This document shows positions 13,780 through 19,797 of a stretch of DNA of 24,000 nt, one piece after another. The DNA is taken from positions 274,641 through 298,640 of the forward strand of contig NZ_FRDI01000003.1 of assembly GCF_900143255.1 (NCBI RefSeq), written 5' to 3'. Below the pieces are notes generated by a model that ran no database searches, had not been told where the DNA came from, and saw only the letters and a program-made list of their open reading frames with translations. Within the stretch, counting starts at the first letter, position 1. Every line of letters begins with the position of its first letter. This DNA comes from Desulfovibrio litoralis DSM 11393 (GTDB lineage: Bacteria > Desulfobacterota > Desulfovibrionia > Desulfovibrionales > Desulfovibrionaceae). The position numbers and the translations under genes are program-made.

Positions 13780-14787
13780 CTACTTCTTCCCGAATGCTTC
13801 CGATAAGGTTACGAATACAAAACCACGTTCTAAAAGTTGGGGTAAAGCCTTGACTAAGCCGGCACCGGTTCCGCTTTGCGGTCTGTGAAAATGAGCAAGT
13901 AGAATATCGCCACCTTTGCTTTGTAAAGTGCGTTTTTCTACTTCATGGGCGTTTAAAGTTGCCCCTTGATCTAAGGTAATGCTATATCCTGCGATACGAT
14001 AATCCGCAAAATGAATAAAATTTACGGCAACTTCGTCATAAAACGCCGTTCCCGAGCGAAACCAAGAGATTTTTTTATTATGTTGCAACAGTCCATATTG
14101 ATAAATCTGCCTACGACTCTCAATTATTTCAGCACAAAGTTCTTCAACTGAGCGAGTTCCTTGAATATTATAAACAGATTTTCCATTAACGGAGGCAGGA
14201 CGATGAGTCAAACCGTGGGAAGCGATTTCAAATAAGGGGTTTTCGGCGATACGTTGAAATACTGCTTGATTATGTTTTATCCACGAGGGCGTAACAAAAA
14301 AAGTTGCCCGAATTTTTAAACTCTCTAACGTTTGCAATAAACCTTCGTCATAATTTCCGTTTTTCATACCACTACAAGCATCTAAAGTAAGAGCCACAAC
14401 GGGGGCCTCATACTCAATATGCTCCCCTGATTTTTCATGATATTTACCGCTTCTTACAACCGAAAAAGGTAAACGAGAGTCAATTCCCGTTAAGGTTTCA
14501 GACCATTCTCTAGGTTTTAAAGAACTATTAGATGACTCTCGCCACTCGGAAATTAACTTAGGGCAAGTTGTTTCTGAATTAAACTCAGGTGCTATAGTTC
14601 CTTGTATTTCAGTTTCGCCTTCAGCTTTTTCTGTTGAGTTTAAGACAAGGTTAGATATAGGAGCGAGACCCGCATTTGACGGTTCTGATTGACTTTTTTG
14701 TGCCTCTATATTTTTTACAACCAAAAATATAACACAAAAAATGAAACCGACTAAAAGCAGACTATGCTTTAGTTTTAATTTAAACAT
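13780..14787 (-). CDS. polysaccharide deacetylase (NodB-homology / CE4) family protein with an N-terminal membrane anchor or signal
   Basis: VALTLDACSG, ATFFVTPSW, IASHGLTHRP and ILLAHFH fit the CE4 motif order (Asp motif, His-x-x-x-His type motif, LxH). It has a hydrophobic N-terminus (LLLVGFIFCVIFLVV). The track start at 14805 is a TTG, so I prefer the ATG at 14787. Depending on which start is used, it lies 23 nt (TTG 14805) or about 41 nt (ATG 14787) downstream of the 1257-aa gene. Confidence 0.8.
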   Translation of the reverse strand: MFKLKLKHSLLLVGFIFCVIFLVVKNIEAQKSQSEPSNAGLAPISNLVLNSTEKAEGETEIQGTIAPEFNSETTCPKLISEWRESSNSSLKPREWSETLTGIDSRLPFSVVRSGKYHEKSGEHIEYEAPVVALTLDACSGMKNGNYDEGLLQTLESLKIRATFFVTPSWIKHNQAVFQRIAENPLFEIASHGLTHRPASVNGKSVYNIQGTRSVEELCAEIIESRRQIYQYGLLQHNKKISWFRSGTAFYDEVAVNFIHFADYRIAGYSITLDQGATLNAHEVEKRTLQSKGGDILLAHFHRPQSGTGAGLVKALPQLLERGFVFVTLSEAFGKK

Positions 14788-14828
14788 AAAAGTCTCTTTA
14801 TACAAATATAAACAATGATAACGTTATC

Positions 14829-17800
14829 TTATCTAAGGTTAGGATTTGAAGTAAACCGAGCGGCATCTTCCGAAATTTTATAAGTTTTTAAATCAGAAGC
14901 GGCTAAACGCCCATAAACATCATTCGCATGTTTTTCTGCCAAATCTTTCATTATTGCCTGCCACTTAGGAAGGTTACCCATCTTTTTATATAAAGTTCCT
15001 TGTCTGTAAAGGTTTGCCAACTTATCAGCATCTTGAATTTCCATATACTGTGGATATTTAAGCATATAATCTAAAGCTTCTTGGGGTCTTCCCGCACTTT
15101 CGGAAATATCCATAAGCATATTTAATAATAACTTAATTTTCGGACGATCAAGTTGTAACGGGTCTTTGTCTGCAAGACTTAAAAAATTGCGTAAACTTTC
15201 TTTAGCAACACGGTTGGCGTTTTCCAAATCTCGTTTTTGCCAATAGTCGTTTGCCGTAAAATATTGAGCATAGGCCTGTTGTAATGGAGTAAGACCGGTA
15301 TCGCCCTGAAGTTTTTTCCACAATAACACCGCTTTGTCCGGGTTACCTGTTTTTTCTTCTGCGATAGCAACGGAATAGTCAAGTTGTTGAGCCGCTTTAT
15401 CGTTTAACTCCCACAACTGTACCTTACGCTGTAAATCTTTAACAGCGTCCCAACGATCATTTTCCACTAAAATATTTAAAGCCATTGCCAGAGCGTCTTC
15501 ACCATATTCGGGAATTTTCGCCCCTTGGAAAAATGGCTCAAGGGTATCTAAAGCCCTTTGAGGCGAATCGGTTTTCCACAAACTTCTCGCCAAAGCGATT
15601 GTGCTTGAAGGACGCAATTCATTTTTTTGTTCTCGCACGATAGGGAATTTATCCCATAAAGTCGTTGCCAAAGTTGTTCTATTTTCTAAAATTCCTTGAG
15701 CAACGGCGTTATCAAACGCCTGCATGGCTATTTCTTTAATTTTTGGAATAAGGCTGTGTTTAGGATAATCTTTAACAAAGGCGGTAGCTTGTTCCAAAGT
15801 GTTTTCATAATCTTTGTTCCAAAGATACCACATAGCCAGCTTTAAACGAGCTAAAGGAGCCAAAGAACTTTGAGGAAAATCTTTAAGTATTCTGTTATAA
15901 ACCTGAACCGCACCCAAGCTAAACTGTTTATTATCAAAAATTACGCTCATATCCCTTGCGGTTGGAGCATCATAAATACCTTCTTCCGCTAAACGCATCA
16001 TAGAAACCAAGCCACCGTCTTTATCAGGAAACTTTCTTACAGCTTCGTTATAAGTTTCTCTGGCGGCACTAACCTGACCGTCTATGGCATAAATATCACC
16101 CAAACGTGCCAAAACCATATCAGTTTCATCACCGTTAGGCAGAATGTTATAATAAGTCCAATAATAGTGGCGAGCTTTATCATTTTTTCCGACTCTAAAG
16201 GCCAAGTCGCCGAGCATATTTAAAAATTTAGGCTGATCAAGATAAAAACGAGGCCAACGTCTTTCAATAAACTCAACGATTTTATAAGCTTCCTCATAAT
16301 AACCAAGATTATAGTTAGTGCGTGCAAGTGCAACCGCAGCCTCTCGCACATAAGGATTATCCGGATAATTTTGAACTACATATTGATATTCATCAGCAGC
16401 TTTTTGATATTCTTTTTTGTTATAATAATATTCACCCCAATTATAATAAACAAGAGGAATATTAGGATCTTTTGGAAATTGTTTTTTAAGAATATTAAAA
16501 TACGCTTCGGCTTCTTGAGGGTTGTTACTTTTTAAATTGACGAAACCAAGACGCATTAAATGAGTTGCCACCATTGGTGATTTTAGATTAAAATTCATCG
16601 CTTCGGTGGTGCTTGAAACTATTTTTGAGAAATTAGCCAAAAGGTCACTCTTCCCAAGCTCATAAACAGCAGTAGCAAGTTCATTTAAAACCGTTTCACG
16701 CTGTTCAAAACTTAAGTCGGCTCTTCCCCGTAATGGTTCTAAGATCGCCAACGCCGCTTCATATTCACGCACTTTAACATTAGCTTTGGCTTGAGTAATT
16801 AGTTCATCAATCGTTGGCGGAACAGGTTCTTGTTTACCTTGAGTACCGTGTCCTTCCTGAGCTTGTGCCGTATTATTGGTAGTATTAGCATTACTTTTTA
16901 CTAAAAGTTCAAGCTGGCGTGGTTCAGGAGTAAAAGACTGTTGCCCTGTCGCCTGTTGCCCTGTCGCCTGTTGCCCTTGTTGTCCTGTTGCTTGCTGTTG
17001 TCCTGTTGCTTGTTGTTGCTGTTGCTGTTGCGTTAAGGGCTGTCCTGCACCTTGCATATTTTGCGGAATAGGTTGAACCTGATTTTGCCCTTGTTGCTGT
17101 ATTGGTTGATTATAAGGATTTTGTTGTAAAGCTTGCCCCTGAGGGTTTTGTGGAACAAAAGGAACCTGTTGATTTTGAGGTAAATTTTGTGGCAATGACT
17201 GTGGTGATGCTTGAGACGGCTGAACAGGTTGTTGAACTTGATTACCTTGAGGCGGAAATCCTTGTTGCCCGTAAGGCATTTGTTGAGCCTGTTGTTGATA
17301 CTGCTGTTGTGCCTGTGGCACAAACTGTTGCTGTTGCATTGCCGGCATTTGATTTTGAGGCATTTGATTTTGAGGAGTTTGCACCTGTGCTTGAGGTTGA
17401 GGTGCATAAAGTTCGGAGGGCGGAGGACCAAGCTGAATCGGAACAGATAAATTCGGACCTGCATTCGGATTTTGTGCAGGAGTTTGAGAAACCGCTTGAG
17501 GTTGTTGCCCCATTTGAGATTGAGGCATATTTTGCGACTGCTGTTGTCCAATCGGCATTTGCGAAGCCTGAGTCTGCTGAGGATAAACAGCTTGCGGCAT
17601 ATTTTGACCTTGAGTCAGGTTTTGCGGCTGTGCAAACGGTTGAGTATTCGGCTGGGCATAAACATTTTGAGAAGGAGCGGCTTGTCCATATGGATTAGCA
17701 AAACCACTTTGACCCTGTTGCCCGGCTTGACTATAAGGATTTACAAACCCTTGTTGGTTTTGTCCTTGAACGGGCTGTGCCTGCTGTTGCATAGGCTGTT

Positions 17801-18627: not shown

Positions 18628-18643
18628 TGCAACAATTAGACCA
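18628..18643 (-). promoter_or_regulatory. candidate sigma-54 (-24/-12) promoter for the 1257-aa gene
   Basis: The minus strand reads TGGTCTAATTGTTGCA against the consensus TGGCAC-N5-TTGCW. GG and GC have exactly the canonical spacing and the -12 TTGCA element is complete. It lies 45 nt after the activator stop. The predicted start near 18617 sits just upstream of AAGGTG and the GTG start at 18602. Confidence 0.6.
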
Positions 18644-18687
18644 AAAACACAAAACAAATTTAATATCAATAAAAATAAAATATTTAA

Positions 18688-19797
18688 TTAAATTGATTCA
18701 TTAGTCTTTTTCTTAAGCTTTTCAATTAAAGTAGTTCGTTTAATCCCCAAGATTTCTGCCGCCTGATTTTTGACTCCGTCTGCCATTGTTAAAGCTTCGT
18801 TCAACAAACGCTCTTCTGAAATTTCTAAAAACTCTTTTAAACCAATTCCAAGTTTTTTCAAGTCATCAACCGTTGCCCAAGAAAATTCCGATTTTTCTTC
18901 ACTAAAAACAGCTTTGAAAAAATTTCTTTCCTCGTTATGTGAAACTTTTTGTTCTTTAACAACCTCACAAACAGGTTCAAGAGGTTGGGGCATAGACAAA
19001 AGACTGACATCGCCCACTTCGTTTAACAATTTTTGAGGTAAATCTTTCAATTGAACAACATCATCATCGCACAAAATGGAAATACGTTCCATAAAATTTT
19101 CGAGCTCTCTGACGTTACCCGCCCAATGATATGCATTTAAAGCTTTTTTGACATCAGAAGAAAGTCTTAATAAAGGACGATTTTTCTTTTTACAAAAATG
19201 TTCGAGAAAATGTTCGAGAAAATGTTCCGCCAAAAGAAGGATATCTCCGCCACGCTCACGCAACGGCGGTAAAGACAAAGGAATAACATTTAAACGATAA
19301 AACAAATCTTCGCGAAAACGCCCTGCCGCAACTTCTCGCTCTAAGTCTCTATTGGTTGCCGCAACAATACGCACATCAACTTTGCGGATTTCCGTTCCAC
19401 CAACACGCTCTATTTCTTTTTCTTGTAAAACTCTTAATATCTTAACTTGTAACAAAAGATCCATCTCGCCGATTTCATCAAGAAAAATCGTGCCGCCGTT
19501 TGCAAGCTCGAAACGCCCCGGGCGAGAACGCACAGCCGAAGTAAAAGCCCCTTTTTCATGTCCGAAAAGTTCAGATTCTAACAAATCTTTTGGAATAGCC
19601 CCACAGTTAATAGGCACAAAAGGCTTATCCGCTCTAACGCTGTTTGCATGTAAAGCTCTTACAATCAGCTCTTTACCCGTCCCCGATTCTCCCGCAACCA
19701 AAACCGTACTGTCTGTTGGTGCAACTTTAACAAGCACCTTAAACAACTCGTTTAATGTAGAGCTTTGCCCTATAATTCCTTTTGTATCCAGTTTCAT
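18688..19797 (-). CDS. sigma-54-dependent transcriptional activator (bEBP) with only AAA+ and C-terminal HTH domains
   Basis: Walker [15 protein letters not shown] (a variant of GAFTGA), Walker [37 protein letters not shown], and a Fis-type [21 protein letters not shown]. The AAA+ domain starts at about residue 8. GAGGG ribosome-binding site upstream. An in-frame TGA lies 4 codons upstream of the ATG, so no N-terminal sensor domain is possible. Confidence 0.9.
19195..19227. repeat. about 2.75 tandem copies of the 12-bp unit AAAATGTTCGAG inside the bEBP gene (encodes [11 protein letters not shown])
   Basis: Read directly: 19195-19206 equals 19207-19218, and a partial third copy runs to 19227. 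Confidence 0.95.

Follow-up and report, generated by a model that had tools for sequence, protein, structure and literature searches.

We analysed a 24-kb window of the Desulfovibrio litoralis DSM 11393 genome (contig NZ_FRDI01000003.1, positions 274,641 to 298,640; "the window" denotes this whole stretch of 24,000 nucleotides (nt), and positions are counted from its first letter). Three consecutive open reading frames (ORFs) on its minus strand encode a sigma-54 activator of 369 aa (18688-19797), a large exported protein of 1257 aa with a TPR-like C-terminal region (14829-18602; hereafter the TPR protein) and a CE4 polysaccharide deacetylase (13780-14805, or 13780-14787 from a second start). 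Comparison with related genomes identified the activator-TPR gene pair as the conserved unit, found throughout the Desulfovibrionales. Overall, we lean modestly towards reading the locus as an activator of the type of Desulfovibrio vulgaris DVU2894, followed by a gene for a scaffold resembling the flagellar-motor protein PflA, which would stand behind its own sigma-54-type promoter, with the deacetylase gene as a chance neighbour. The ORF coordinates and the gaps reported by an earlier, sequence-only reading of this DNA (the first-pass annotation) were all recovered: the activator and TPR genes are 85 nt apart, and the TPR and CE4 genes 23 or 41 nt, depending on the CE4 start chosen. No terminator-like site was found in either gap.

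The conservation of the pair emerged from a genome scan for the TPR gene, which yielded 80 loci in different species. All homologues of the last 700 residues of the TPR protein belong to Desulfovibrionales, are 950-1220 aa long and are at most 51% identical to it. In 68 of the 69 loci with enough upstream DNA, the TPR gene is directly preceded, on the same strand, by an activator orthologue (60-68% identity), and this order-wide coupling of a DVU2894-type activator gene to a TPR scaffold gene is new here. Downstream of the TPR gene, a CE4 deacetylase gene was found in 0 of 82 related loci, even at E ≤ 0.01, and a Memo-family gene directly follows the TPR gene in 48 of 71. The linkage anticipated for relatives of this locus was thus borne out for the activator and the TPR gene and failed for the deacetylase.

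These counts bear directly on the model of the first-pass annotation, in which activator, promoter, TPR scaffold and CE4 enzyme form one dedicated sigma-54 unit for an envelope glycan function. Within the window, the model can point to three co-oriented genes with short gaps that lack a terminator-like site, to downstream products that are both either exported or membrane-anchored, and to an AMIN-like domain in the TPR protein that suggests contact with peptidoglycan. Nevertheless, synteny essentially refutes the three-gene envelope module. The CE4 gene has no counterpart after the TPR gene of any related locus, Memo usually holds that position, the CE4 orthologues in Desulfovibrionaceae adjoin aroE, apart from the activator-TPR pair, and the orthologous group of the activator has predicted targets elsewhere in the genome (PMC4641369). 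We consider a single dedicated unit very improbable. More generally, tight same-strand packing, as with the deacetylase here, is no evidence for a functional module without comparative support.

The deacetylase carries the CE4 domain PF01522 (E 4.8e-15) and an N-terminal hydrophobic anchor, and its 335-aa product, counted from the ATG at 14787 that serves as the database start, has an exact match in the protein collection. In the alignment of its CE4 subfamily (A4), the HGxxH, R...Y.D and H motifs are conserved or invariant. Motif 1, usually Asp-Asp in CE4 enzymes, reads ALTLDAC (Asp-Ala-Cys) without exception in this subfamily. Identity to the nearest CE4 homologues is 45-51%; two could be located in relatives, and these orthologues, at 45-49% identity, both adjoin aroE. 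One of these belongs to a Desulfovibrio metagenome-assembled genome in which the activator-TPR pair lies on another contig, and it has hisG and hisI nearby, as in the window. Given the 0/82 linkage and the orthologues beside aroE, the CE4 gene is, as judged from the compared sequences, a lineage-specific neighbour brought in by rearrangement and outside the conserved unit. In the window, it is probably co-transcribed with the TPR gene.

The upstream member of the pair is an activator of minimal architecture. Its Pfam matches are Sigma54_activat (PF00158, residues 8-174, E 3.5e-72), AAA_lid_14 and HTH_8 (residues 324-363, E 1.5e-9). Since the AAA+ domain begins at residue 8, no domain precedes it, and the protein is sensor-less, as had been proposed from its sequence. 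Its loop reads GAFTSA, a variant of GAFTGA, and across the loci in which the activator stands beside the TPR gene the loop is GAFTHA in 61 and GAFTSA in 6, the window counted. Between the AAA+ lid and the HTH, the window protein has about 25 residues more than its orthologues, and it contains a small internal repeat of 11 residues at about residues 190-200.

These features match a group described in D. vulgaris, where four activators lack an N-terminal domain, among them DVU2894 with the loop GAFTHA (Kazakov et al. 2015, PMC4641369). DVU2894 is FlrA/FleQ-like and co-expressed with flagellar genes; the published prediction is that it acts within the flagellar cascade, regulates its own gene and has targets elsewhere in the genome, and all its orthologues are preceded by a yGTCA-N6-TGACr repeat (PMC4641369). 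The window contains a single exact GTCA-N6-TGAC, cGTCATAAATTTGACa at 19922-19935, approximately 125 nt upstream of the activator ATG. In the form GTCATAAATTTGAC (cGTCA-N6-TGACa, assigned to neither strand), this perfect palindrome is the predicted binding site through which a DVU2894-type activator would regulate its own gene. Nearly all orthologous loci with upstream DNA have an exact copy 33-330 nt ahead of the activator gene. The only one-mismatch copy in the window, at 18995-19008, is unremarkable. Taken together, the missing N-terminal domain, the GAFT[H/S]A loop and the upstream palindrome, all as published (PMC4641369), place the window activator in the DVU2894 orthologous group with high confidence, and the activator probably binds the conserved palindrome ahead of its own gene. 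A second candidate motif, TTGCAC-N6-TTGCC (TTGCACTGTTTGTTGCC, 19828-19812 on the minus strand), 14 nt before the activator ATG, resembles the family element described below but was rejected: its spacing is one base too long and it is unconserved in relatives.

With this membership, the activator is not obviously the dedicated local regulator of the first-pass annotation, because it is an orthologue of a predicted regulator of the flagellar cascade whose targets lie elsewhere (PMC4641369). At the same time, the conserved coupling gives this sensor-less, FlrA-like regulator its first candidate local target, namely the TPR gene next to it.

The 85-nt spacer between the two genes reads ...TTTTGGTCTAATTGTTGCATATCATTATTTTAAGGTGCTAACTAGTG... 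and contains TGGTCTAATTGTTGCA at 18643-18628 (minus strand). This site has the canonical GG-N10-GC spacing and TTGCA at -12, in the position and with the spacing given for a -24/-12 promoter by the first-pass annotation. The predicted transcription start lies near 18617, and a Shine-Dalgarno-like AAGGTG at 18615-18610 stands 7 nt before the GTG start of the TPR gene (18602). We scanned the 300 nt after each activator stop codon in the relatives with a sigma-54 matrix and found a strongly conserved element, T-N-GCAYG-N4-TTGCW, in the activator-TPR spacer of most of them. Of 68 loci, 38 have at least 10 of its 11 specified positions, where a background taken from the remainder of these loci predicts 0.52; all 11 are present in 25 loci, with zero other matches in 1.7 million positions. 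These counts are indicative and not exact, as the loci that gave the motif were also the ones scored and are mutually related. From this conservation, we have little doubt that the spacer element is real.

The family element equals the Desulfovibrio sigma-54 consensus, tGGcacg-N4-tTGCt, at all but one position. Compared with the family form, the window element keeps the GG, has T-C-T in place of C-A-Y and precedes the GTG by 26 nt, a stretch that includes the AAGGTG; the related locus L074 has a similar sequence, TGGTTCAATTTTTGCT. A true GG at the same spacing and place is also seen in Maridesulfovibrio (AGGCAGG) and in loci L009, L010 and L012 (TGGCCTT), alongside the window (TGGTCT).

The position of the element relative to the coding sequence is regular too. 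In 46 of the 58 instances, an in-frame start codon (GTG in 38, ATG in 8) occurs 12-16 nt after the C of the -12 box, and just 8 of these 46 starts have a Shine-Dalgarno-like tetramer. GTG starts without a Shine-Dalgarno sequence close to the element can be seen, for example, in L011 (5875-5905) and L078 (4983-5015). Sigma-54 polymerase usually starts about 12 nt after the C of the -12 GC, and this placement of the start codon therefore predicts an mRNA leader of only a few nucleotides; in the window, the predicted leader is about 15 nt and includes the AAGGTG. The element-proximal start is needed, since without it the TPR protein would lose its signal peptide. In Halodesulfovibrio (P0004, MIKHISS...), the annotated start is the element-proximal one, and in Maridesulfovibrio (P0073) it lies further downstream, giving a protein without a signal peptide. 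Gene callers thus sometimes miss the element-proximal start of the TPR gene. The combination of a conserved sigma-54-like element whose -24 box is degenerate with a near-leaderless GTG start is new here.

Several observations nonetheless weigh against a sigma-54 promoter at this place. The 24 kb contain the pattern TGG-N8-TTGCA twice where 1.05 copies are expected, and 27 of 100 shuffles do as well, which puts the window match, taken alone, at chance level. The site lacks CAC and scores 8.3 bits with the sigma-54 matrix, at which 0.13 such sites are expected per 300 nt. Known sigma-54 promoters hardly vary in the first G of the -24 GG, yet only 14 of the 58 family instances have it, with T in 32, A in 7 and C in 5. 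The 500 nt preceding the element show no enrichment of GTCA-N6-TGAC, one mismatch allowed (0.22 per kb against a background of 0.32 per kb). The lack of a terminator between the activator and TPR genes means that read-through could suffice for TPR expression. In addition, Kazakov et al. reported no conserved sigma-54 promoter near DVU2894 (PMC4641369), which the degenerate first G of the GG probably explains.

Several of these observations speak for a different account of the spacer, in which the element is an operator, for example for a response regulator binding its two TTGCA direct repeats, or an mRNA signal at a GTG start that lacks a Shine-Dalgarno sequence, and the TPR gene is read together with the activator gene from an upstream promoter. 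Indeed, the element can be written TTGCAYG-N4-TTGCA, with direct repeats at 11-bp spacing; the first G of the GG is replaced in most instances; the gaps between activator and TPR gene are short and lack a terminator; the GTCA-N6-TGAC scan of 500 nt found no upstream activator site; and the published survey lists no conserved sigma-54 promoter there (PMC4641369). On the other hand, all other specified positions fit the sigma-54 consensus of the taxon, including the G at position 7 and the T-rich spacer, and the lineages with a true GG (Maridesulfovibrio, L009/L010/L012 and the window) keep both spacing and place. The fixed distance of 12-16 nt to the start codon in 46 of 58 loci is what one would expect if a promoter there made a near-leaderless mRNA. 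Scanning the window for Rfam families and for tRNAs gave zero matches, so no known RNA element accounts for the spacer. We also considered a sigma-70 promoter with TTGCAY as the -35 box and rejected it, as the aligned loci show no consistent -10 hexamer at 16-18 nt. On balance, we regard an operator or mRNA signal as rather unlikely.

What lifts the window match above chance is solely its counterpart in the same spacer of the orthologous loci. The earlier caveat that a promoter match of this quality could arise by chance was therefore justified for the site in isolation and is overcome by its conserved position in relatives, which also makes a sigma-54-type promoter serving the large gene plausible. 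Judged from these alignments, expression of the TPR gene is more probably sigma-54-dependent than not, with considerable room for doubt. If true, the degenerate -24 box and the near-leaderless GTG start would represent an unusual use of sigma-54, and the element would be one that an earlier regulon survey missed.

We then turned to the product of the large gene. An alignment of 20 orthologues divides it into a signal peptide, a conserved N-terminal domain of about 100 residues, a variable linker and a conserved C-terminal region of about 660 residues. In the window protein, the predicted signal peptide comprises approximately residues 1-28 (MKINIFIPKWLVLSAALSFISPVDFALG/AD; 18519-18602, minus strand), as read from the translation, and the model places a helix at residues 10-19. 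No hydrophobic segment follows the signal peptide, and the protein has no LysM match.

The N-terminal domain (residues 28-125; 18228-18521, minus strand) is predicted to be an AMIN-like beta-sandwich. In the AlphaFold2 model, it is folded from residue 28 into nine strands, with a mean predicted local distance difference test (pLDDT) of 84.6 and most 10-residue blocks above 90. The top Foldseek match in the PDB is the AMIN domain B2 of Neisseria meningitidis PilQ (4aqz, E 3e-3, probability 1.0). Searched against PDB sequences, the family profile returned a single match, residues 185-244 of Myxococcus xanthus PilQ, in its AMIN region (E 2.9e-4). The Pfam AMIN model (PF11741) did not match residues 1-202 even at E ≤ 10. 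The possible AMIN-like domain of the first-pass annotation accordingly found no backing in Pfam and was supported by both the profile-to-PDB search and the predicted fold, and these two are the whole basis of our AMIN-like call.

Between the two conserved regions lies a low-complexity linker (residues ~140-595, 455 aa; 16818-18185, minus strand) composed of 31% Q and 13% P, with QQPM and ATGQQ tandem repeats that are also repeats at the DNA level. Among orthologues, the linker is 158-455 aa long and rich in P, A and Q; that of the window is the longest and the most Q-rich. Amid the QQPM repeats, three copies of GF[V/A]NPY occur (~17600-17930, minus strand; residues ~225-335), and the family consensus at the corresponding place is PFFxVPY. 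GF[V/A]NPY / PFFxVPY may be a short linear binding motif inside a disordered tether.

The C-terminal region (residues 596-1257; 14829-16817, minus strand, including the stop codon) is modelled by AlphaFold2 as an all-helical, TPR-like superhelix of 35 helices in about 17 pairs (pLDDT 91.6). Pfam matches on the large protein are of TPR type only and cover approximately residues 680-870, and no non-TPR Pfam or NCBIfam family matches it. Searches of NCBIfam and of PDB sequences with the TPR protein returned generic TPR, YbgF/CpoB and BamD, none of them diagnostic. The arrangement anticipated by the first-pass annotation, with a flexible spacer and a TPR platform after an exported N-terminal domain, proved correct in light of the TPR-type profile matches, the linker composition and the 35-helix model.

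Of 350,542 PDB chains, the first-ranked Foldseek match of the C-terminal region was 9hmf_K (773 residues, E 6.4e-14, 656 aligned columns), with a runner-up about 600-fold weaker (E 3.7e-11). Entry 9HMF is the periplasmic scaffold of the Campylobacter jejuni flagellar motor, and its chain L ranks sixth. We infer that chain K is mature PflA from its 773 residues and from the published PflA deletion construct, which begins at residue 16 (PMC12222027).

Published descriptions of PflA come from two species. In C. jejuni, 16 TPR motifs are joined by an unstructured linker to an N-terminal beta-sandwich, with sandwich and linker spanning residues 16-168 (PMC12222027). The Helicobacter pylori protein has a "PflA-AMIN" sandwich like the AMIN domains of PilQ, a flexible loop of about 40 residues (126-163) and 17 TPR repeats, and PflA is not conserved at the sequence level (PMC11870540). 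A 2025 survey of flagellated bacteria nominated TPR proteins near flagellar genes as potential PflA; WP_242012285.1 (P. cashew, 1037 aa) and WP_232005696.1 (P. profundus, 1080 aa) are among the entries of its Supplementary Table 5 (PMC11870540). In our set, WP_242012285.1 is P0111 and WP_232005696.1 is a member of the P0101 cluster, both orthologues of the window TPR protein. The family had therefore already been nominated as PflA, with no further analysis there, and the statement in the first-pass annotation that the combination is not a described system was too strong (PMC11870540). New here is the full PflA-like plan, including the AMIN-like domain, in combination with a very long disordered tether; this plan is read from predicted structures.

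The surroundings of the pair in relatives also include a flagellar gene. In Nitratidesulfovibrio, Solidesulfovibrio and Desulfoplanes, the activator gene is immediately preceded by a small stand-alone Flg_bb_rod gene, and of 64 loci scanned for it, 31 had it at that position. Its product is 113-133 aa long and consists of Flg_bb_rod and Flg_bbr_C (L082 6542-6943, L085 7408-7794, L086 6913-7254). The rod gene is absent from the window. In relatives, it is often preceded by a methyltransferase-NikR-FolE2 block, and the window has a methyltransferase gene at 22361-23029 that is a candidate counterpart of the NikR-FolE2-linked one.

A flagellar role must be weighed against several contrary points. 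No flagellar gene was found in the 24-kb window, and the control of flagellar genes by the DVU2894 group is itself a published prediction resting on co-expression and phylogeny (PMC4641369). Profile searches of PDB sequences detected no sequence similarity between the TPR protein and PflA, although the test is weak given that PflA is unconserved in sequence. Superposition on 9hmf_K gives low TM-scores (0.38 and 0.34), and close behind it in the list come eukaryotic TPR proteins. TPR solenoids readily match one another in Foldseek. Finally, the identification of 9hmf_K as PflA comes from its length and not from the PDB entry.

These points leave room for a scaffold of another kind, anchored to peptidoglycan but not flagellar, such as a polar or septal landmark, a Tol-Pal/CpoB-like protein or a type IV pilus organiser, that merely sits beside a regulator gene. 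AMIN domains target septal or polar peptidoglycan in AmiC and PilQ, and PilQ is both the structural and the profile match here. Moreover, YbgF/CpoB and BamD are the best profile matches of the TPR part, and the activator-TPR pair has no flagellar gene nearby in Halodesulfovibrio, as in the window. In its order of parts, from a wall-binding domain through a long low-complexity spacer to a TPR end, the large protein is reminiscent of FimV/HubP, but it has neither a LysM domain nor an internal transmembrane segment. However, the top structural match is a chain of a flagellar scaffold and not CpoB, BamD or PilF, a rod-family gene is the upstream neighbour in about half of the loci, and the regulator encoded beside it falls into the FlrA/FleQ cluster and shows co-expression with flagellar genes (PMC4641369). 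A non-flagellar scaffold is, in our judgement, unlikely. For the PflA-like reading, we put the chance that the large protein is a component of the polar flagellar motor at even or slightly better.

In the scheme we modestly prefer, the activator, consisting of AAA+ and HTH only, would bind the palindrome upstream of its own gene, and the scaffold gene would be fired from its own sigma-54-type promoter in the 85-nt spacer, starting near 18617, with read-through from the activator gene as a possible extra source of transcript. The protein would be exported to the periplasm and serve as a scaffold of the polar flagellar motor, its beta-sandwich and linker holding a partner or peptidoglycan and its TPR arm forming a radial element or spoke. 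The CE4 gene might ride on the same transcript in this lineage, with no conserved functional tie. In this scheme, domain content, synteny, motif conservation and fold similarity are observed, whereas sigma-54 dependence, the choice of activator at the promoter, the flagellar role and the equation of 9hmf_K with PflA are deduced. If true, Desulfovibrionales, including gut and host-associated lineages, would build a PflA-like periplasmic scaffold around their polar motor, which would back the recent proposal that spokes are ancient and widespread and would provide a tractable test family outside Campylobacterota, in D. vulgaris and O. alaskensis.

A bolder version can be formulated for the order as a whole. 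There, Desulfovibrionales would use a specialised sigma-54 promoter with a -24 box lacking its first G (TTGCAYG), firing a mere 1-5 nt before a GTG start and so giving a sigma-54-dependent, essentially leaderless GUG mRNA; this promoter would perhaps be served by the co-encoded GAFT[H/S]A activator, and its product would be a PflA-type spoke on a disordered tether of 150-450 residues. We hold this version to be doubtful as a whole; if true, it would extend the spoke architecture of the flagellar motor beyond Campylobacterota.

Further observations concern the window beyond the three genes. Its GC content is 37%, against 43-71% in related Desulfovibrionales loci, and each window protein tested is the sole or near-sole member of its own 90%-identity cluster, which suggests a low-GC lineage that is divergent and possibly host-associated. 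On the minus strand, the deacetylase gene is directly followed by an orphan or very fast-evolving hydrophilic ORF of 219 aa (12972-13631). We rejected it as a flagellar gene, as it has no homologue but itself among 5.8 billion proteins and no Pfam match. Divergent from the activator gene, a 630-aa ORF (20185-22077, plus strand) has a low-complexity N-terminus rich in K, N and E; it has no Pfam match, and its sole NCBIfam match is a weak, sub-threshold one to AroA (EPSP synthase).

Each part of the locus can be set beside a known system. Compared with CE4 deacetylases of the PgdA/PdaB type, the window enzyme shares PF01522 and the His motifs and differs in motif 1, which is D-A-C instead of D-D. 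The canonical sigma-54 promoter, TGGCACG-N4-TTGCW, has in common with the window element the GG-N10-GC spacing and the TTGCA, whereas the window lacks CAC. The family element shares with it the C, A, Y and G of the -24 box and the TTGC of the -12 box, and it departs from it in two ways: 44 of 58 relatives have another base in place of the first G of the GG, and in 46 of 58 the start codon is so close that a leader of only a few nucleotides, mostly without a Shine-Dalgarno sequence, is implied. The window activator resembles DVU2894 in the missing N-terminal domain, the non-canonical GAFT[H/S]A loop, the upstream yGTCA-N6-TGACr and the order-wide gene neighbourhood; the loop is GAFTHA in DVU2894 and GAFTSA in the window. 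FlrA and FleQ proper have an N-terminal FleQ/receiver-like domain, which the DVU2894 group lacks.

For the large protein, two systems offer parallels. FimV/HubP of polar-flagellated bacteria likewise place a long low-complexity spacer between a peptidoglycan-binding domain and a C-terminal TPR-like module, but they have LysM and an internal transmembrane segment, where the protein described here has an AMIN-like domain and is predicted to be wholly periplasmic. The resemblance to PflA of C. jejuni and H. pylori, the spoke of the periplasmic stator scaffold, extends along the whole chain: both are periplasmic (in our case by prediction), with a PilQ-AMIN-like sandwich, an unstructured linker and then a superhelix of 16-17 TPR repeats. 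The two differ in the length of the linker (158-455 aa in the TPR family, about 40 residues in H. pylori PflA) and in total length (950-1260 aa against about 790 aa). They differ as well in genomic setting, for PflA genes are scattered, whereas the TPR gene is coupled to the gene of a master regulator.

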